From a virus: 38,638 nt of DNA. A program made the translations under genes and the position numbers. The notes beneath the pieces were generated by a model. It had not been told where the DNA came from, searched no databases, and saw only the letters and a list, made by a program, of their open reading frames with translations. Positions 2,519-38,513 of the stretch are shown here, piece after piece; the stretch's first letter is position 1, and the number at the start of each line of letters is the position of its first letter. The DNA is taken from the UHGV virus genome UHGV-0037385; one strand, written 5' to 3'.

Positions 2519-2749
2519 ATCCTTTATGCGTGGAAGTGGTTCATCAACGTATTTTCTACCAGCGATTAAGATTTCGGAATCCATTAATTGGCGTATCCAG
2601 TATAGTGTTTCATTCCTAGAATATTGAGAAAGTTTTGTTTCTGCCAATTCAATTGGGTAAATGGGAGGAATATCACCATATTCATCTGGAACAAGAGATT
2701 CTGAAACAGCAATTAAAATATCACGGATTAAATCAGGATTAAGTTTCAT
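2348..2749 (-). CDS. DUF2513 (YjcQ-like) family phage protein.
   Basis: The N-terminus MKLNPDLIRDILIAVSE resembles DUF2513 starts. An AAGGAGA Shine-Dalgarno lies 8 nt before ATG 2749. It is probably driven leftward from the repeated element at 2776-2810. The C-terminal 35 aa or so may be an over-extension. Confidence 0.5.
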   Translation of the reverse strand: MKLNPDLIRDILIAVSESLVPDEYGDIPPIYPIELAETKLSQYSRNETLYWIRQLMDSEILIAGRKYVDEPLPRIKDLSLAGYQFIENTSKSAIWKEIRPQLISTVFSNLPGFIRSAIELSSKLIIKYSNIHL

Positions 2750-2775
2750 ATCAAAGTCTCCTTTCTTTTTTACTC

Positions 2776-2810
2776 GGCATGGCAGTGCCTGTATCTAAAG
2801 TATAGGAGAA
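2776..2810. repeat. Copy 1 of a 33-35-bp repeated regulatory element, GGCATGGCAGTGCCTGT-N4-6-AGTATAGGAGAA.
   Basis: It is near-identical to 3933-3965. Both copies sit in divergent intergenic regions, between a leftward gene start and a rightward gene start. The reverse strand carries a TATACT -10 element with a TTGTAA or TTGCTA -35 element 17 bp upstream. Confidence 0.6.
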
Positions 2811-2851
2811 ATGAATAGCTATTACAAGAGAAAGAAGGGAAAGAAAGCGAG

Positions 2852-3905: not shown

Positions 3906-3932
3906 ATAATATCGCCTCCTTAATTTATATTT

Positions 3933-3965
3933 GGCATGGCAGTGCCTGTTTAGAGTATAGGAGAA
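3933..3965. repeat. Copy 2 of the repeated regulatory element GGCATGGCAGTGCCTGT-TTAG-AGTATAGGAGAA.
   Basis: See copy 1. It lies in the divergent region between the gene at 3678..3905 (-) and the gene at 3997..4236 (+). Confidence 0.6.
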
Positions 3966-7527: not shown

Positions 7528-7635
7528 AAAATAGTTATTTCCTTATAAATTGAACATATGTCACACACGTAACTTATAAACAATGTTTCTCCTGTACTGG
7601 ATACGCTGGTCCGGTACAGGAAGAAAGGGGAAGGA

Positions 7636-8087: not shown

Positions 8088-8933
8088 GTGACAGCGTTGC
8101 CAAGACCAAGAAAGAATGGGTTAGACTACTTTCCGCTTGATGTTGATTTCCTTGACGATCCTAAAATAAAGATACTGAAAGCCAGGTATGGCAGAGACGG
8201 TATCGTATTTTATATCTACCTGTTATGCGAGATATATAAGCAGGGATATTACCTGCAGGTAGATGAAGATTTTGAATATATTATATCTGATGATCTAAAA
8301 ATTGATCAGAACAAGGCGAAGCAGGTCTTGAACTTCTTGCTGTCACGGTCACTGTTCGATAACACACTTTTTCAGTCGGACAAGGTCTTGACCTCTGCCG
8401 GAATACAGAAAAGATTTCAACTTGCAGTCAGAGAACGAGCAAGGAAAAATCCGATAGAAGTTGGAAGGTACTGGCTTTTAAAAAAAGAAGAAACAGAACC
8501 TTTTATTAAGTGTACCCATTTTAGTGATTTATCCGAGATAAAAGAGAGTTATTCCCGGAAAAACGATTGTAATTCCACGGAAAAATCCCTAAAGAAAAGT
8601 AAAGTAAAGAATATAGATAATATATTAGGATTTAGCCCGGAACTTGAACAGGCATTTCAGATGTATATTCTTGTCCGTTCTAATAATTATGGAGACATAA
8701 TACCGGAACAGATCCAGGCACTTCGAGAGGATTTGATCCAATTGAGTGATTCAGAAGTTGAACGCATTGCTATTGTTAAGAAGGCAACAGCAGGAGGATG
8801 GAAATCATTTTATAAGACACCAGGCAAGGAGAAGCAGAGCAGAACCAAGAAGGCAGCAGTTAAGGACAATAACAATTTTAAGAGAAGGCAGTATGATATG
8901 GATGATCTTGAGAATCGACTGTTGGGAAGGTAG
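8088..8933 (+). CDS. Phage replisome organizer / DnaD-domain replication protein with a DUF4373-like N-terminus (GLDYFPLDVDF).
   Basis: The N-terminus RKNGLDYFPLDVDFLDDPKIKIL matches the Lin1244/Lin1753-type N-terminal domain. The C-terminal region is DnaD-like. The start may be TTG 8097 rather than GTG 8088. Confidence 0.65.
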   Translation: MTALPRPRKNGLDYFPLDVDFLDDPKIKILKARYGRDGIVFYIYLLCEIYKQGYYLQVDEDFEYIISDDLKIDQNKAKQVLNFLLSRSLFDNTLFQSDKVLTSAGIQKRFQLAVRERARKNPIEVGRYWLLKKEETEPFIKCTHFSDLSEIKESYSRKNDCNSTEKSLKKSKVKNIDNILGFSPELEQAFQMYILVRSNNYGDIIPEQIQALREDLIQLSDSEVERIAIVKKATAGGWKSFYKTPGKEKQSRTKKAAVKDNNNFKRRQYDMDDLENRLLGR

Positions 8934-8939
8934 AGAAGA

Positions 8940-9146
8940 ATGGGTGAAAGTAAAATAAGAAAATGTATTATCTGCGGACGGCTCATCACGGCATCAAGAA
9001 GATATGCATACTGCAGTGATGAGTGTGCAGGTTATGCTAGCAAAGAGCGTGCTAGAGCAAAGATGCGTGAAATACAAGAGGAACATAGAAAATTTATTAC
9101 AGAGACCAGGCAAAAGAAAAATATGAAGAAGCCGGGAAGAAAGTAA
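8940..9146 (+). CDS. Small Zn-ribbon protein with the motif CIICG...CSDEC.
   Basis: 68 aa and basic. The frame stays open and protein-like after the TAA stop. Confidence 0.45.
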   Translation: MGESKIRKCIICGRLITASRRYAYCSDECAGYASKERARAKMREIQEEHRKFITETRQKKNMKKPGRK

Positions 9147-9270
9147 AAGCAGTACAGAAATGAGCTCATAAGAATAGCAGCGGAAGCAAGAGAGCATGGT
9201 ATGAGCTATGGACAGTACGTGGGATTAATGTACTGCGAAGAAAGAGACGAGATGGAAAGAAGGAGAAGAT

Positions 9271-9471
9271 ATGACAGAAAAAGACGCGAAAGATTTGGTT
9301 GACTGGCTGGAACAGGCAGAAGAGGAAACAAAAGCAACAATTGCAGAGCATGAAAGAATCGATCCTTTTTATGACGGAGTACTTTCAACGATCCAGACGG
9401 TTCGAGAATATATCAAGAAAATGCGTAAGGTGGATGAAGCAGAAGGAGAGAAGAAAGAGAATGATAGATGA
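9271..9471 (+). CDS. Small acidic hypothetical protein.
   Basis: An AAGGAGAAG Shine-Dalgarno lies 6 nt before ATG 9271. It is 66 aa. Confidence 0.45.
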   Translation: MTEKDAKDLVDWLEQAEEETKATIAEHERIDPFYDGVLSTIQTVREYIKKMRKVDEAEGEKKENDR

Positions 9472-10117
9472 GATCGTCAAGAAGATAACTGAAATCTCTG
9501 GAACATACTCAGGGTATGAAATATTTTCTGACTGGATAAAGGCTTTAGCATTATCTATAAGCAATTCAACCGATATTGTACATGGTAAAATATGGCAAGA
9601 CAGGGAACAGCAGTATTTAGAAATAGCGAAAAAGCATGGAGCAGATACAATGAAATCTTTTGCTGAGCTTGGCGGTATGCTAGTAACTGCACTGGACGAA
9701 GAAATACAGGATGTGCTAGGTGCGGTATTCATGAAAGGATCGTGGGGCTCAAAGCAAACTGGACAGTTCTTCACTCCATTCAATGTGTCATTGCTAACAG
9801 CATCAATAAGCATCCTGGACGATGTGAGCGAAGAAAATCCGCTGATAATCAATGAACCGTCTACAGGTGGCGGTGGAATGATGATAGCAGCTGCAAGAGT
9901 ACTAAAGGACAGAGGGATAAACCCACAGAGGTGCATGAAAGTTACAGCACAAGACTTGGACTGGAAGTGTGTATACATGACTTACTTGCAATTAAGTTTA
10001 CTTGGAATAAAAGCAACTGTAGTACAAGGAGACACATTAAGCACTCCGTATATTGACGGAATTTACCCGCAAGAAAGAGTCATGTACACTCCAGCAGAGA
10101 AAGGAATGCTTTTTTAA
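9461..10117 (+). CDS. HsdM-like N6-adenine methyltransferase N-terminal / SAM-binding domain protein. It ends before the catalytic NPPF/Y motif, so it is a catalytically incomplete methyltransferase-like protein.
   Basis: 218 aa. The HsdM_N-like segment reads DVLGAVF...GQFFTPFNVSLL. Motif I reads INEPSTGGGGMMIAAARVL. The helper-region motif reads TAQDLDWKCVYMTYLQLSLLGIKATVVQGDTL. A stop then follows and no NPPF/NPPY motif is present. The start was moved to ATG 9461 (GGAGAG Shine-Dalgarno) within the longer track ORF 9299..10117. Confidence 0.65.
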   Translation: MIDEIVKKITEISGTYSGYEIFSDWIKALALSISNSTDIVHGKIWQDREQQYLEIAKKHGADTMKSFAELGGMLVTALDEEIQDVLGAVFMKGSWGSKQTGQFFTPFNVSLLTASISILDDVSEENPLIINEPSTGGGGMMIAAARVLKDRGINPQRCMKVTAQDLDWKCVYMTYLQLSLLGIKATVVQGDTLSTPYIDGIYPQERVMYTPAEKGMLF

Positions 10118-10128
10118 AGGTTGAAGAG

Positions 10129-11196
10129 ATGGAAGGAACAATAGATTGCAGAGAAGATGTGCTGAATAATTTGATTTCATGGGCAGCATCGCACGGAATT
10201 GATCCATCAGAAGCAAAATATGATTTTTACATGATGCTAAACAATGTTGAAATCACAAGCAGATGTACAGAGATTGCACAGATCGAAGAGAATAGAAACG
10301 AATATCTCCTAAAAAAATTCCTTATAGCGAAGAAAGTAAAAGGATGTACAGACAGAACACTTCAGTTCTACGGAACGAGCATAAAATCAATTCTTCAGAG
10401 GATAGGGAAAACGGTAGACGATATCACAGCAGACGATATCCGATTTTACATGGCAGTAAGAATCCGACAAGACAAGGTATCAAAAACAACTGTCGGAAAT
10501 GAAACGAGAAATCTCGGAAGCTTTTTCACATGGTTGTACCTGGAAGAAGAAATCAAGCGGAATCCAATGTCGAAAGTCGATAGAATCAAGAAAGAAAAAG
10601 TGAAGAAAGAAGCACTCACAGAACTTGAGATTGAACAGTTAAGAGCATCGGCAGAAGGCGAACGTGAAAAAATGATTGTCGAAGTGTTACTGTCAACCGG
10701 ATGCAGAGTGAGCGAACTGGTACAGATCCTAATATCTGAAATTGACGGAGATAAAATTTTGGTGCATGGGAAAGGAAAGAAAGACAGATATGTTTACCTT
10801 AACGCAAGAGCAAAGTTCTCGATGCAGAGATATTTGGAATGCAGGAAAGACTCAAATCCTTACTTACTCCCACGCAGTGTATCTATAAAAAACATGGAAG
10901 GATGCGAAAGAGCAAAGTTGAAAGAGTGGTGGAAGAATCCACAAAACGTATCCGAAGGTCATTCTGATAAAGGAACAATAGAATGCATGATGAGAAAGAT
11001 GGCGGAAAGAGCAGGGGTTGATAAGGCGAACCCACACAAGTTCAGAAGAACGTGTGCAACAATGGCACTCAGAAGAGGAATGCCGATCGAACAGGTCTCT
11101 AAGATGCTAGGACATGAGAGCCTGGAAACAACACAAATCTATTTGGATCTGGAAGAAAACGAATTGGAACAGGCACATAAAAAGTATGTAGTGTAG
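10129..11196 (+). CDS. Tyrosine site-specific recombinase (XerC/D-like, phage-integrase family), the second recombinase of the element.
   Basis: It has a SAM-like core-binding domain and the complete catalytic set: R in TGCRVSEL, K in HGKGKKDRYV, H-x-x-R in HKFRRT, then LGHESLETTQIYL with the Tyr nucleophile. It starts 12 nt downstream of the methyltransferase-like ORF. Confidence 0.85.
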   Translation: MEGTIDCREDVLNNLISWAASHGIDPSEAKYDFYMMLNNVEITSRCTEIAQIEENRNEYLLKKFLIAKKVKGCTDRTLQFYGTSIKSILQRIGKTVDDITADDIRFYMAVRIRQDKVSKTTVGNETRNLGSFFTWLYLEEEIKRNPMSKVDRIKKEKVKKEALTELEIEQLRASAEGEREKMIVEVLLSTGCRVSELVQILISEIDGDKILVHGKGKKDRYVYLNARAKFSMQRYLECRKDSNPYLLPRSVSIKNMEGCERAKLKEWWKNPQNVSEGHSDKGTIECMMRKMAERAGVDKANPHKFRRTCATMALRRGMPIEQVSKMLGHESLETTQIYLDLEENELEQAHKKYVV

Positions 11197-11208
11197 GAAG
11201 GAGAAAAT

Positions 11209-11538
11209 ATGGCAAGGTTTGAGTATATCGAAGAAATTAAGCCGTTTTTCTGGTGGACAGGAAGTTTGAGCATAGAGCAGGCAATCACACACTTGACAAA
11301 GCGGTACGATGAAGAGGAAGCGCACAATCTGTTGGATGAAAAGTTAGAATTTGTATCTGACTACATGAGAAATAATCACGGAGCTGTCGAGCAGTACGGA
11401 ATCTACCTCATTCCGGAATTTATGCTTGGATATGATGACATAGAGATTGTGATTGTAGCGGCATCCGAAAACGAGAGGGCTACGGTGGTATTCTCGGATA
11501 TTCCGGTAGTTAAGAGAGGTGAGAGAGATGAAAGATAA
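11209..11538 (+). CDS. Hypothetical protein.
   Basis: 109 aa, with an AAGGAGAAAAT Shine-Dalgarno before ATG 11209. Confidence 0.45.
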   Translation: MARFEYIEEIKPFFWWTGSLSIEQAITHLTKRYDEEEAHNLLDEKLEFVSDYMRNNHGAVEQYGIYLIPEFMLGYDDIEIVIVAASENERATVVFSDIPVVKRGERDER

Positions 11539-12842: not shown

Positions 12843-12907
12843 CATTAAATTACAGAAAGGAGACGGAGCTCCGGCCGGGCAAAGATATATCGGCTCCTTT
12901 CGAGAAG

Positions 12908-13945
12908 ATGTATATACAAGAAGATGACTTGAAACTAAATGACTGGCAGTTCTCACAAAGAAAATATCTGCCATATGAAACAAAGCTACGGCTTACAGAA
13001 ACCCGTATAAGAGAATGGCATTACAACTGGGAAGGGCAAGTGTATTTAAGCTATTCTGCTGGACTTGATAGCACAGTGCTACTACATATGATCCGAAAAA
13101 TATTAGGAAATGATGTCCCGGCTGTATTCTCCAATACAGGTTTGGAATTTCCGGAAATCGTGAGATTTGCAAGGAAAGCACCGGGAGAGTTTGTAGAGAT
13201 ATATCCGAGAGAAAAGGATGGAAAGAGGATTACATTTAAACAGGTCGTTGATCAATACGGATTCCCGCTTGTGTCGAAAGAAACGGCATTGAAAATACAT
13301 AAGTTGCGACACGGGAACTTATCAGATCGGTATAGAAACTATCTGCTGAACGGGGACGAGCGTGGAAAGTTCGGAGTTTTGGCAAAAAAATGGAAGTTTC
13401 TGTTGGACGCAAAATTTGATACATCTGAGAAGTGCTGTCACATTATGAAGAAGAAACCATTTAAAGAATACGAAAAGCGCACCGGCAGAAAACCATATAT
13501 CGGCACAACACAGGATGAGGGATTCATGCGAGCGCATCTATACGCAAGCACAGGATGTAATGTGTATGACGGGAAGAAAATTAAATCACAGCCGTTAGGA
13601 TTTTGGAACAGACAGGATGTATTAAGATACGCGGTCGAAAATGATGTGGAAATATGCTCTGTGTACGGAGATATTAAGCAAGATCAGCAAGGCAACTATT
13701 ATACGACAGGAGAACAACGAACAGGATGTATGTTCTGTGGATTCGGAGCGCACCTGGAAGAAGAGCCAAACAGATTCCAGAGAATGTCCATAACACATCC
13801 GAAATGTTATGAAATCTGCATGAACCTTGAAAACAACGGGGTGAAGTATAAAGATGCGTTAGAAACATGCGGAATTGGTACAGAAACATGGGAGCAGATG
13901 GGGCAAATGGATATATTTGATTTTATTGGAGGTGCGGAATGCTAG
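12908..13945 (+). CDS. Phosphoadenosine-phosphosulfate-reductase-family (PP-loop ATP pyrophosphatase, DndC-like) protein with a Cys-rich DUF3440-like C-terminus.
   Basis: The PP-loop SYSAGLDS is a variant of SGGKDS. The C-terminal Cys cluster reads CMFCGFGAH...CYEIC. This kind of PAPS_reduct/DUF3440 protein is typical of phages. Confidence 0.7.
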   Translation: MYIQEDDLKLNDWQFSQRKYLPYETKLRLTETRIREWHYNWEGQVYLSYSAGLDSTVLLHMIRKILGNDVPAVFSNTGLEFPEIVRFARKAPGEFVEIYPREKDGKRITFKQVVDQYGFPLVSKETALKIHKLRHGNLSDRYRNYLLNGDERGKFGVLAKKWKFLLDAKFDTSEKCCHIMKKKPFKEYEKRTGRKPYIGTTQDEGFMRAHLYASTGCNVYDGKKIKSQPLGFWNRQDVLRYAVENDVEICSVYGDIKQDQQGNYYTTGEQRTGCMFCGFGAHLEEEPNRFQRMSITHPKCYEICMNLENNGVKYKDALETCGIGTETWEQMGQMDIFDFIGGAEC

Positions 13946-14643
13946 ATTTCGGATATTACAACATGGATTGTATGGATGGCATGAAAGAATTTCCAGATAA
14001 ATATTTCGACATCGCCGTTGTAGACCCGCCATATTTTAGCGGACCGGAGAAAAGAGGATTTTACGGGAGACGCATAAGCCCGATTGGAGTTCAAAGAGTG
14101 TATCAGAAATCTGCAGAATGGACAATTCCAGATAAAGCGTATTTTGATGAATTGTTTAGGGTCTCCAAGAATCAGATCGTTTGGGGATGTAACTATTTTG
14201 ATTATCATTTCCCTCCGGGTAGGATTGTATGGGATAAATGCAATGGCAATACAGATTTTTCAGATTGCGAAATCGCATTCTGCAGTTTCCATGATAGCGT
14301 GAGGCTATTTCGGTATATGTGGAACGGAATGTTCCAAGGAAAGAGCATACAGGAGGGGCATATCCAGCAAGGAAACAAGAAAAAGAATGAAAAGCGGATA
14401 CACCCTACTCAAAAGCCAGTGATGTTGTACAGATGGTTGTTTGACAGATACACAGAAAGAGGAATGAAATTACTGGACACGCACGTTGGGAGCGCAAGCA
14501 GTCTGATAACAGCGCATGATGCAGGACTGCAGTATGTTGGATTTGAATTGGATAAGCACTATTATGAACTTTCTAAGAAAAGGTTGGAAGAGCATACAGC
14601 GCAAATGAGTTTAAGTGATTTCCTGGAGGTGAAAACAAAATGA
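13939..14643 (+). CDS. Orphan beta-class DNA N6-adenine/N4-cytosine methyltransferase (N-4/N-6 methylase domain).
   Basis: Motif IV DPPY (VVDPPYF) precedes motif I (LLDTHVGSAS), which is the beta-class order. HPTQKP is also present. It overlaps the PAPS-reductase-like gene by 7 nt. Confidence 0.8.
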   Translation: MLDFGYYNMDCMDGMKEFPDKYFDIAVVDPPYFSGPEKRGFYGRRISPIGVQRVYQKSAEWTIPDKAYFDELFRVSKNQIVWGCNYFDYHFPPGRIVWDKCNGNTDFSDCEIAFCSFHDSVRLFRYMWNGMFQGKSIQEGHIQQGNKKKNEKRIHPTQKPVMLYRWLFDRYTERGMKLLDTHVGSASSLITAHDAGLQYVGFELDKHYYELSKKRLEEHTAQMSLSDFLEVKTK

Positions 14644-17033: not shown

Positions 17034-17105
17034 GGACCATTAGTTCAGTGGTAGAACATTCGCCTCATAAGCGAAATGTCGTAGGTTCGATCCCTGCATG
17101 GTCCA
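17034..17105 (+). tRNA. tRNA with a CAT anticodon: elongator tRNA-Met or lysidine-modified tRNA-Ile2. It is not an initiator, because G1 pairs with C72.
   Basis: The cloverleaf folds by eye: acceptor GGACCAT / ATGGTCC, D-arm GTTC-AGTGGTA-GAAC, anticodon arm TTCGC-CTCATAA-GCGAA, and T-arm GTAGG-TTCGATC-CCTGC with canonical GTTCGATC. The CCA end is not encoded. Confidence 0.85.
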
Positions 17106-17121
17106 TCAATAATAAACAGGA

Positions 17122-17634
17122 ATGGAAGGTGGTGAAGTGGCAGGTTATGAAAACATAAGAGATAAAGGATTTGATAAGCGAAGTACGGAAGAACTACGGG
17201 AAATACAATCCCGTGGAGGTAAGAAAAGTGGCGAAGTAAGACGTAGGAAGGCAGACTTCCGGAAGACGTTGAACCTGCTGCTTACTGCGGAAATAGATAA
17301 TGAAGAATGGAAGCCGGTTTTAGAGTCGCTTGGTGTTGAGTGTACTCTGGAATCGGCTTTGCTTATGGCTCAGATCAAGGAGGCAATGCGGGGAAATACA
17401 AAGGCTGCATATTTTGTTGCCCAGTATGCTGGACAGAATGCACAGACTGCTGCGGATGATAAAGAACAGCAACGCAGGACAGAACGGATGGAAGCTGATA
17501 CAGAGAAAATTCGTAGAAGCTCTGGAAATGCTGAGAATGAGGATGAAGGAGTAGAGATTATAAATGATGCGCCAGAAGAAACAAGTCAGGATATCGGATA
17601 TAGTGATTCCGAAGTACCTGCCGATATTCAATAA
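17122..17634 (+). CDS. terS: Terminase small subunit.
   Basis: 170 aa. It lies immediately upstream of and overlaps terL. The motif GNTKAAYFVAQ is typical of Firmicutes phage TerS proteins. It has an acidic C-terminus. Confidence 0.6.
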   Translation: MEGGEVAGYENIRDKGFDKRSTEELREIQSRGGKKSGEVRRRKADFRKTLNLLLTAEIDNEEWKPVLESLGVECTLESALLMAQIKEAMRGNTKAAYFVAQYAGQNAQTAADDKEQQRRTERMEADTEKIRRSSGNAENEDEGVEIINDAPEETSQDIGYSDSEVPADIQ

Positions 17635-37400: not shown

Positions 37401-38513
37401 TCATTTTCTTCTATTTTCGTGTTGCATTTCGTGTTGCATAGACTCAAAATAGTCGATTGCAATCTTATTCATTTTATCTTCCATGTCCGGAAGAGTGTGA
37501 CGGTAGACTTCTTTCAGTACCGAATCATTTCCCCATCCACCAGATTGCATGATATATGCATCTGGTATACCAAGTGCATGCTGGACAGAAGCGTTGTAAT
37601 GCCTTAAGTCATGGAAACGAAAGTGCGGTATCTCTAATTTCTTAAGCAGATTTCCAAACGATGTTGTTAATGTATTCGGATTCATGTTTACAGTGTCGGT
37701 TGAAAGTTCCAAAAACTTCTCGATTACGAATGATGGATAATTCACATATCTGTCACCAGCATAAGACTTAGGTGCTTTCACAATCCATTCGCCCTCATCA
37801 TTCATAACCATTGTTTTTGTAACGTGTATCGTGTGATTCTTGATGTCGGACTTCTGTAATGCACAGATCTCACCTCTTCGCATAGCTCCAAACGCTGCGA
37901 GGAGAATTGGCACTTCCATGATAGTTCCTTCTGATGCACGAACAATCTTCTTAATGTCCACTTCTGTAGGAATGTAAATGTTGCTCCTGAGTTTTTTTGG
38001 AAGAGTGATATTGATTACAATTCCCGGACGAAATCTTTTCATTACCGCGCTGATCAGTCCATTCATGTCACGAACAGACTTAGGTGACAGCTCTGTAGAT
38101 GCCTTATTAATCACCTTTTGAATTACGCTTTGTGTGATTTCCTTTAGCTGATACTCTTTGAGCGGTACCATGCAATTACGTTGCATACTCTTGTACTTTC
38201 TGATACTGGACGGAGAGAGGACAGCGGACCGTTCCTGTATATACTTTTCCAGTGCATCACCGAAAGTCATTTGCACTTCTTCATCTTTCTTGATTTCTTT
38301 GTTATCTGCCCATTCAGCAGCCATTGCTTCAACTTTTCTTTTTCCTCTTGCCGATGGATCATCACAAGTGAAAGACTTATAGATTCTTTTCTGCTTTTGC
38401 TTGTTAGTCTTTGGATCTATAACAGGATTTCCGTCTTTATCAACCACATCTTCGTAATGTGAAAAGACAAGACATCTCCATGATCCGGAAGGTAACTTCT
38501 TAGCTGTTGCCAT
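37401..38513 (-). CDS. int: Tyrosine integrase (phage-integrase family) with an N-terminal AP2-like arm-binding domain.
   Basis: The N-terminus MATAKKLPSGSWRCLV is AP2-type. The catalytic residues are present (R...HDLRHY...GH...Y). An AAGGAGATGATTATAT Shine-Dalgarno precedes the start. The C-terminus contains the tandem repeat MQHEMQHE, encoded by the DNA tandem repeat TTCGTGTTGCAT x2. Confidence 0.85.
   Translation of the reverse strand: MATAKKLPSGSWRCLVFSHYEDVVDKDGNPVIDPKTNKQKQKRIYKSFTCDDPSARGKRKVEAMAAEWADNKEIKKDEEVQMTFGDALEKYIQERSAVLSPSSIRKYKSMQRNCMVPLKEYQLKEITQSVIQKVINKASTELSPKSVRDMNGLISAVMKRFRPGIVINITLPKKLRSNIYIPTEVDIKKIVRASEGTIMEVPILLAAFGAMRRGEICALQKSDIKNHTIHVTKTMVMNDEGEWIVKAPKSYAGDRYVNYPSFVIEKFLELSTDTVNMNPNTLTTSFGNLLKKLEIPHFRFHDLRHYNASVQHALGIPDAYIMQSGGWGNDSVLKEVYRHTLPDMEDKMNKIAIDYFESMQHEMQHENRRK

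Follow-up and report, generated by a model that had tools for sequence, protein, structure and literature searches.

In phase-variable Type I loci an HsdM-type gene and a recombinase are co-located (hsdM, hsdS, a tyrosine recombinase and an inverted hsdS', as in SpnD39III with creX), and in Type I enzymes the C-terminal region of HsdM binds HsdS. Phage P1 encodes Cre, which is employed in cyclisation and multimer resolution and acts, without an accessory protein, at a lox site that adjoins its gene, while XerCD is aided non-catalytically by enzymes or enzyme-like proteins, namely PepA and ArgR (cer/psi) and the FtsK gamma domain. In the current study we analysed a pair of adjacent genes in the UHGV virus genome UHGV-0037385, the whole 38,638-nucleotide (nt) stretch of which is termed the window and to which all window positions refer. 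The first open reading frame (ORF1) specifies the non-catalytic half of a gamma-class N6-adenine methyltransferase and belongs to the PHROG 5696 family, while the second (ORF2) specifies a complete Xer-like tyrosine recombinase. The pair is functional, conserved and co-translated, and in temperate phages of Lachnospiraceae it forms part of the early operon. It is built from known superfamilies, and the observation is more general than an initial annotation of the window had recognised, since the short length of ORF1 is the norm of its family and the pairing is that of a conserved mobile module.

Anatomy of ORF1 and ORF2

The Pfam profile N6_Mtase matches ORF1 above its cut-off (E-value 4.5e-9), covering profile positions 22-128 of 311 only, and the PHROG 5696 profile matches it nearly end to end (E-value 5e-63; amino acids (aa) 3-211 on positions 21-224 of 250). 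The AlphaFold2 model of ORF1, with a predicted local distance difference test (pLDDT) score of 93.9, comprises a helical N-terminal domain and strands 1-4 with motifs X and I-III, and ends 7 aa past T210-P211, at aa 218, with strands 5-7 (motifs V-VIII) absent. The key residues of these motifs, which stand in the gamma-class order, are kept in 49 close and mostly kept in 25 distant homologues (Table 1), the G, Q and second F of motif X being invariant even in distant long forms; motif I aligns with that of EcoR124 HsdM and PacII M. Judged from the order of elements in the modelled fold, the YTP site would occupy the position of motif IV (NPPF/Y), lost in ORF1, and a motif IV of the form (N/D)PP(F/Y/W) was present in no family member examined. 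Since the catalytic NPPF loop and strands 5-7 are lost, ORF1 cannot methylate and at most binds S-adenosylmethionine (SAM) or a similar ligand; its retained pocket motifs suggest that it may bind SAM.

The initial annotation had described ORF1 as a methyltransferase-related protein that keeps the SAM-pocket motifs and lacks catalysis, which the N6_Mtase match, motifs X and I-III and the missing motif IV all bear out. It had also placed the end of the protein about 15 aa before an expected NPPF, a distance that does not hold as YTP stands at the motif IV place and the end follows 7 aa later. Its claim of likeness to HsdM is upheld by the N6_Mtase match but does not extend to the HsdM N-terminal domain, as Pfam HsdM_N was not detected in ORF1; against TIGR00497 (hsdM) the protein scores 16 bits, with a cut-off of 243. 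The nearest proteins in sequence and structure are gamma-class methyltransferases of Types I, IIB and IIG, identity to the HsdM structures being 10-15%. The defence-system models of PADLOC gave only generic Type I methyltransferase matches to ORF1, at 3.5e-9 or weaker, with no system-specific match, and in a viral structure library it matched only unnamed or methyltransferase-annotated proteins. When NPP[FYW] and DPP[FYW] were sought in real ORFs in all six frames of the window, DPPY at nt 14023 was the sole hit; the gene that holds it (13939-14643) encodes a complete beta-class methyltransferase of its own, and nothing therefore supplies the missing half of ORF1, in agreement with the initial annotation. 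A C-terminal half located elsewhere in the window is thereby ruled out.

The brevity of ORF1 is shared by its family. Among 1651 homologues, the best 120 measure 210-260 aa, and an exhaustive profile search returned 1088 clusters at 50% identity (E-value <=1e-30), the best 150 representatives of which measure 150-340 aa. Comparison with a prophage in a Schaedlerella metagenome-assembled genome (MAG) gave ratios of non-synonymous to synonymous substitution of 0.10 for ORF1 and 0.04 for ORF2, and ORF1 is, as judged by this ratio, under purifying selection. The family-wide length, this selection and the confident model rule out a truncated pseudogene. Homologues in cultured or annotated phages (FP_Taranis, Dulem virus 37 and Vibrio phages) measure 241-297 aa and are also without NPPF; phage relatives of ORF1 are annotated as hypothetical protein, as N-6 DNA methylase or as a subunit of a Type I methyltransferase, and with the catalytic half absent the methylase names must be wrong. 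Cultured phages provided no nucleotide match, and their protein matches are distant (<=38% identity); no description of the PHROG 5696 family or of its pairing with a recombinase was found in the literature and searchable database entries. The family extends over many phyla and types of mobile element, its members being located in early or leading regions, where Lar-like, SprT-like and PcfJ genes are among their neighbours; at locus L149 the ORF beside the family member is one which, read by eye, we take to be DUF2958-like. In FP_Taranis (L001, 4239-5846) the 297-aa homologue ends TGQLTFF and is immediately preceded by a RuvC resolvase and by a gene whose annotation is FtsK DNA-binding-domain protein.

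ORF2 possesses the core-binding and catalytic domains of a tyrosine recombinase (Pfam Phage_int_SAM_4, 1.6e-12; Phage_integrase, 2e-29), and all 26 homologues compared (58-84% identity) keep R193, K215, H303, R306, H329 and Y338, so that the complete second recombinase of the initial annotation stands. A conserved N-terminal extension of approximately 60 aa, parts of which are invariant in the same 26 homologues, and an insertion at about aa 250-280 are also present. The protein is closest to XerA among the NCBIfam models (E-value 2.7e-58; about 1e-40 for XerC and XerD) and falls below all of the curated cut-offs (score/cut-off: XerA 197.6/220, XerC 149.9/335, XerD 138.9/330, XerS 76/267). PDB matches were to the XerC-like 4a8e (2e-22), XerA and XerD (1a0p), and PADLOC returned nothing meaningful. 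The 120 closest homologues measure 318-405 aa, most of them 341-370, and none contains a methyltransferase domain. The separate integrase to which the initial annotation had drawn attention is confirmed by its profile match (Table 1), and in related prophages a different integrase occupies the end of the prophage, next to tRNA genes; in L010 its distance from a tRNA array is about 130 bp. ORF2 is thus predicted from its sequence to be catalytically competent, and it is distinct from the integration enzyme. In L176-L178 (4001-5074) ORF1 is missing and an ORF2-like recombinase (59% identity) is nearly the first early gene past the repressor; next to the integrase of this prophage there is also a gene with an HSDR_N domain.

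Table 1. Positions of the gene pair, its motifs and associated features in the window.
Feature	Position	Strand	Remarks
Four-gene all-coding module (66-aa ORF, ORF1, ORF2, 109-aa ORF)	9184..11522	+	98.4% identity over 2339 bp to L179-L183, L013
66-aa ORF	9271..9471	+	No Pfam/PHROG match; travels with module
ORF1, non-catalytic half of gamma-class N6-adenine methyltransferase, PHROG 5696 family	9461..10117	+	218 aa; ATG start
Motif X, GQFFTP, aa 101-106	9761..9778	+	G101, Q102, F103, F104, T105 invariant in 49 homologues
Motif I, EPSTGGGGM, aa 132-140, SAM-binding glycine loop	9854..9880	+	E132, P133, G136, G138 invariant
Motif II region, AQDLDW, aa 163-168, acidic residues ending strand 2	9947..9964	+	D165, D167 invariant; model strand 159-165
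Motif III, QGDTL, aa 189-193	10025..10039	+	Q189, G190 invariant; T192, L193 nearly; aligns with RGDTL of PacII M
Fourth strand and YTP, aa 207-211, at putative motif IV place	10079..10093	+	Strand 207-209; P211 invariant, T210 nearly
C-terminal tail AEKGMLF	10094..10114	+	Clade consensus TP[AK][KR]MG[VA]L[IL]
T6 run overlapping ORF1 TAA stop	10110..10115	+	Read from sequence
ORF2, Xer-like tyrosine recombinase	10129..11196	+	355 aa
Span of ORF2 catalytic residues	10705..11142	+	R193 10705-07, K215 10771-73, H303 11035-37, R306 11044-46, H329 11113-15, Y338 11140-42
109-aa ORF, last gene of shared module	11209..11538	+	No family match
Ordinary integrase of the phage, outside module	37401..38513	-	phrog_1 5.5e-48

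Pairing and exchange of the two genes

Pairing was surveyed in 160 further loci (80 viral contigs and 80 genomes), a recombinase being counted if co-oriented with the ORF1 relative and within 400 bp of it. For relatives of at least 45% identity, which represent a Lachnospiraceae clade, a tyrosine recombinase was present in 114 of 126 loci; for those of lower identity, it was present in 4 of the 25 loci with enough flank. ORF1 was found with no recombinase in L031, L083 and L086. At nine metagenomic places representing three lineages, a recombinase of roughly 350 aa directly follows ORF1, while the neighbouring genes differ and the integrase is separate. Hosts are mainly Lachnospiraceae and other Clostridia. 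The partners are of at least three types, i.e. ORF2-like with a SAM_4 N-terminal domain, 309-314 aa with SAM_5 or SAM_3, and 270 aa, and they lie downstream or upstream of ORF1, singly or as a tandem pair. This variety is a case of non-orthologous replacement with adjacency preserved. Two different tandem recombinases (309 and 341 aa) follow ORF1 in L004 (6669-8634), L173-L175, L020, L074, L079, L085 and L096, and in L173 ParA and ParB are encoded a few genes downstream.

ORF1 and the recombinase overlap at 55 of the 92 distinct junctions, mostly by a 4-nt ATGA stop/start; an ATG-first rule was applied in this scoring, and many junctions scored as gaps show GTGA or TTGA. The initial annotation had suggested that slippage at the T6 run preceding the ORF1 stop could generate a phase-variable fusion protein. 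The -1 frame is indeed open from this run, reading LKVEE-MEGTIDC into ORF2 with no stop. The run was present at just one of the 92 junctions, being unique to the window's lineage, and is therefore not a conserved slippery site, while the -1 relation of the two genes is explained by the usual 4-nt ATGA/GTGA/TTGA overlap. No fusion protein was encountered among the 240 closest homologues (120 of each protein), and these two observations largely rule out a T6 frameshift fusion. L152 (8001 onwards; Lachnospiraceae UBA5895 MAG) encodes a 416-aa in-frame fusion in which aa 1-154 of ORF1 are continued by the C-terminal part of the recombinase; half of each protein is gone, and a deletion or assembly artefact is the probable cause.

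In the long-form members of the ORF1 family, which come from many phyla and measure about 245-340 aa, the protein terminates in a low-complexity tail ending QLSLF, QLALF, QMSLF, QLDLF or similar. Q-L-x-L-F is the consensus beta-clamp-binding motif and is usually C-terminal (PMC4549789), and on this basis the long-form tails are predicted to bind the clamp. The strict motif was detected within the last 12 residues of 19 out of 53 long representatives, compared to 0.02 expected from shuffled tails, and in one of 96 short forms; long forms with a clamp motif at the end include P0308, P0310, P0354, P0389, the protein at L149 8001-8768 and those of L151, L155 and L160. In the model of one long form the core is unchanged, one helix is added and the tail has a pLDDT of 50-58. 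Across the 160 loci a recombinase was adjacent to none of the nine strict-motif proteins, and the strict motif was carried by none of the 116 proteins with a recombinase, i.e. the clamp-binding tail and the adjacent recombinase are mutually exclusive. ORF1 of the window ends AEKGMLF directly after the fold, in a tail of pLDDT about 91 that is modelled as packed and that MAFFT sets under the QLSLF of the long forms; since AEKGMLF has neither the Gln nor a linker, clamp binding is not predicted for this protein. In a Bacillota prophage (L145), two small early proteins (8831-9076 and 9670-9936) beside the ORF1 homologue end QLSLF or QLSLFED, which suggests that several clamp-directed early proteins may be encoded by one phage.

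The pair travels within a four-gene module (Table 1). A near-identical copy is present in L179-L183 and L013, the flanks of which are unrelated to those of the window (a REP_ORF2-G2P/PcfJ replication module and different terminase and capsid genes), and this occurrence in unrelated phages indicates recent exchange of the module as a unit. The same pattern is seen in a second lineage, as L007 and L009 share 2120 bp at 99.3%. The module ends fall on gene boundaries and similarity fades gradually at the left end, and the spread looks like ordinary mosaic exchange, not site-specific insertion. In the window and in L007 the two ends of the module share no direct or inverted repeat of at least 9 nt, and the 9-mer matches at the ends in L179 are at chance level, at least one also being obtained in 34 of 200 shuffles. 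The initial annotation had considered that ORF2 might belong to a nested element with its own att sites, and no repeats were found at the ends of the shared module.

It had further proposed an inversion system within the phage, for which local and whole-window searches revealed no credible inverted repeats: these yielded short chance-level pairs and a few hairpins only, the six hairpin-type repeats of the window (0-3 in shuffles) including none that flanks a segment. A scan of about 175 loci (11-bp arms, 5-9-bp spacers) found no recombination site common to them, and no scanned hairpin adjoins the pair in the window; lineage-specific hairpins lie 3' of some modules, for example TAACACTTCCG-N6-CGGAAGTGTTA in L015-L019 and GTCCTACATG-N8-CATGTAGGAC in L012, L022 and L027. 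No dif-like or lox-like site tied to the module was identified, and a synonymous-constraint scan of 126 ORF1 and 74 ORF2 sequences gave no peak beyond the ORF2 start. Since the module has no non-coding DNA or embedded conserved site and works in unrelated backbones, the target is probably elsewhere. Within the 108-bp gap between RecT and RusA (window 7590-7621), TCCTGTACTGGA-TACGCTGG-TCCGGTACAGGA consists of two inverted 12-bp arms that mismatch at one position and are separated by a spacer of 8 bp; the geometry is lox-like and could equally be that of an RNA hairpin. The TCCTGTACTGGA-TCCGGTACAGGA repeat did not turn up in the inverted-repeat scan of related loci, in which no search was aimed at it.

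Genomic setting of the pair

The long early operon that contains the pair lies on the + strand, with a RecE-like exonuclease, RecT, RusA and a replication initiator encoded 5' of ORF1. The 3' end of the 66-aa ORF overlaps the start of ORF1 by 11 nt, a gap of 11 nt separates ORF1 from ORF2, and in other lineages the 109-aa ORF is not conserved 3' of the recombinase. Around the pair, nothing resembling a promoter or a terminator stands out, and no hsdS or hsdR was present among the early- and middle-region ORFs scanned, which represent part of the window's ORFs. The pair is followed by a PAPS-reductase-like gene and then by the beta-class DNA methyltransferase gene noted above; the PAPS-reductase-domain protein, with weak matches to BrxP and SspD, overlaps the methyltransferase start by 7 nt (window 12908-14643), and this N4/N6 enzyme with its DPPY is the phage's real methyltransferase.

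A 31-bp element, GAAAGGAG(A/G)CGGA(A)GCTCCGGCCGGGCAAAG, is located 5' of the PAPS-reductase-like gene in the window (12855-12884) and, at 93% identity, 5' of ORF1 in L007-L009 (5945-5975). Its AAAGGAG can pair with a downstream CTCCTTT to form a hairpin, for which the z-scores are weak (-1.2 and -1.6) and no Rfam match was obtained. A repeated intergenic element with GGCATGGCAGTGCC occurs in the immunity/early-control region (window 2743-2844, 2767-2792 and 3924-3949) and in other phages, with three copies in L004 (4266-4319, 4863-4926 and 5461-5564) and one stretch in L008 (639-726); it may represent an operator or regulatory repeat. A search for known RNA elements found tRNAs alone, and a tRNA gene (window 17034-17105) lies just 5' of a small ORF (17122-17634; PHROG 2412) that precedes the packaging genes.

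Function of the pair and comparison with described systems

We tentatively favour, with somewhat less than even confidence, the reading that ORF1 and ORF2 cooperate in non-integrative recombination with ORF1 as an accessory or regulatory subunit. Both proteins would be made early in lytic growth and would act jointly at a specific site, apart from integration, with ORF1 serving the recombinase non-catalytically by analogy with PepA, ArgR and the FtsK gamma domain, and with the recombination target probably lying outside the module, in the phage backbone or the host chromosome. A physical contact between ORF1 and ORF2, as well as the identity and location of their target, is what we infer under this reading. 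Several observations weigh against it. No recombination site emerged from the repeat, multi-locus and synonymous-constraint scans, and close ORF1 variants pair with different recombinase subfamilies, which argues against a tight co-evolved interface. Neither protein strictly needs the other, since both genes also exist alone (the ORF1 family in other phyla, the ORF2-like recombinase at 59% identity in L176-L178). The linkage could stem partly from inheritance of one mosaic module and, to our knowledge, no tyrosine recombinase has a methyltransferase-like accessory protein.

It is possible, if less probable, that the two proteins have independent functions and are neighbours by co-inheritance, ORF1 fulfilling the family's early mobile-element role at the replication fork or in anti-defence, as a protein tethered to the beta sliding clamp in most lineages, and ORF2 performing Cre-like cyclisation or multimer resolution. 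The QLxLF ends of long-form relatives without a recombinase (19/53 against 0.02 expected), the failure of all nine strict-motif proteins to adjoin a recombinase in the 160 loci, the low model confidence of the long-form tail, as expected of a disordered linear motif, and the position of family members in early or leading regions by Lar-like, SprT-like and PcfJ genes all favour such a division; so does the occurrence of ORF2-like recombinases without ORF1, and ParA/ParB by the module in some related phages fits the resolution of plasmid-like replicons. Passive co-inheritance does not, however, predict an adjacency that outlasts replacement of the recombinase and reversal of gene order, and it must also contend with the predominance of start/stop overlaps at the junctions and with the finding that the clade without the clamp-binding tail is the clade with the recombinase. 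A decoy role, put forward in the initial annotation, in which ORF1 sequesters HsdR (or HsdS) or otherwise blunts SAM-dependent restriction while the recombinase is unrelated or secondary, appears unlikely. The gamma-class affinity of the protein to Type I, IIB and IIG enzymes, its SAM-pocket motifs without catalysis, its early expression as judged from operon position and the Lar-like restriction-alleviation genes nearby in some relatives are in its favour, but an identity of 10-15% to solved HsdM would hardly suffice to mimic the enzyme in many different hosts, the HsdS-binding C-terminal region is absent, HsdM_N was not detected and PADLOC matches are weak and generic; it explains neither the linkage to a recombinase nor the clamp-binding tails.

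The remaining proposals concern the recombinase. That ORF2 is the integrase of a small integrative element (roughly 9184-11522) with ORF1 as cargo is very improbable: the module is 98-99% identical in unrelated phages and similarity is lost sharply at both ends, but no end repeats of at least 9 nt were seen in the three lineages examined (the L179 matches being at chance level), the ends coincide with gene boundaries, the left one fading gradually as in homologous mosaic exchange, and there is neither non-coding DNA for an att site nor an embedded conserved site. We give hardly any credence to a phase-variable switch, whether by T6 slippage or a programmed -1 frameshift fusing ORF1 to the recombinase or by inversion of a phage segment; although the -1 frame is open from T6 into ORF2 and an in-frame fusion occurs in L152, the T run is confined to one of 92 junctions, none of the 240 closest homologues is fused, the L152 protein looks like a deletion or assembly artefact, and inverted repeats are few, weak and flank no segment. 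A more speculative proposal, to which we assign a low probability, is that PHROG 5696 proteins are SAM-pocket adaptors active only when tethered to DNA, by the beta clamp via QLxLF or, in the tail-less Lachnospiraceae phages, by a co-translated recombinase, and that they could couple host-directed or replication-linked recombination to the SAM or methylation state; scrambling of a host Type I hsdS locus or action at dif would be examples of such targets.

The PHROG 5696 family now has two testable and mutually exclusive handles, i.e. a clamp-binding tail and a translationally coupled Xer-type recombinase. If the favoured cooperation of ORF1 and ORF2 is correct, a partner derived from a methyltransferase would be a first among tyrosine recombinases, and temperate phages of Lachnospiraceae in the human gut would commonly have a second, non-integrative recombination activity; if ORF1 is instead anti-restriction or clamp-directed, the phage repertoire for counter-defence or host takeover would gain a new fold.

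Compared to the gamma-class methyltransferases of known structure (EcoR124 HsdM 7bst, PacII M 7vru/7vs4, BsaXI 8w0p, HsdM 3lkd/3khk), which measure about 470-530 aa, ORF1 with its 218 aa is devoid of NPPF/Y, strands 5-7 and the C-terminal HsdS-binding region. Its long-form relatives share the C-terminal clamp-binding Q-L-x-L-F of transposases and of proteins of replication and repair (PMC4549789), whereas ORF1 of the window does not. The phase-variable Type I loci resemble this pair in the co-location of an HsdM-type gene with a tyrosine recombinase and differ in that the latter has no hsdS and no inverted repeats, its HsdM-like protein is catalytically dead and it resides in a phage early operon. 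PepA, ArgR and the FtsK gamma domain are without homology to ORF1 and set a precedent for the role proposed for it, the interaction being presumed in the present case. Relative to the Xer systems (archaeal XerA, XerS/difSL, XerH/difH and XerC/XerD), ORF2 falls below the curated cut-offs, has an extra 60-aa N-terminus and an insertion, is encoded in a phage early operon and has no identified dif-like site, yet it exhibits the same two domains and the same R-K-H-R-H-Y site, and the tandem recombinases of some related loci resemble the XerC plus XerD arrangement. Unlike Cre/loxP of P1, ORF2 has no module-linked site; like Cre, it is a second, non-integrative tyrosine recombinase of a temperate phage.

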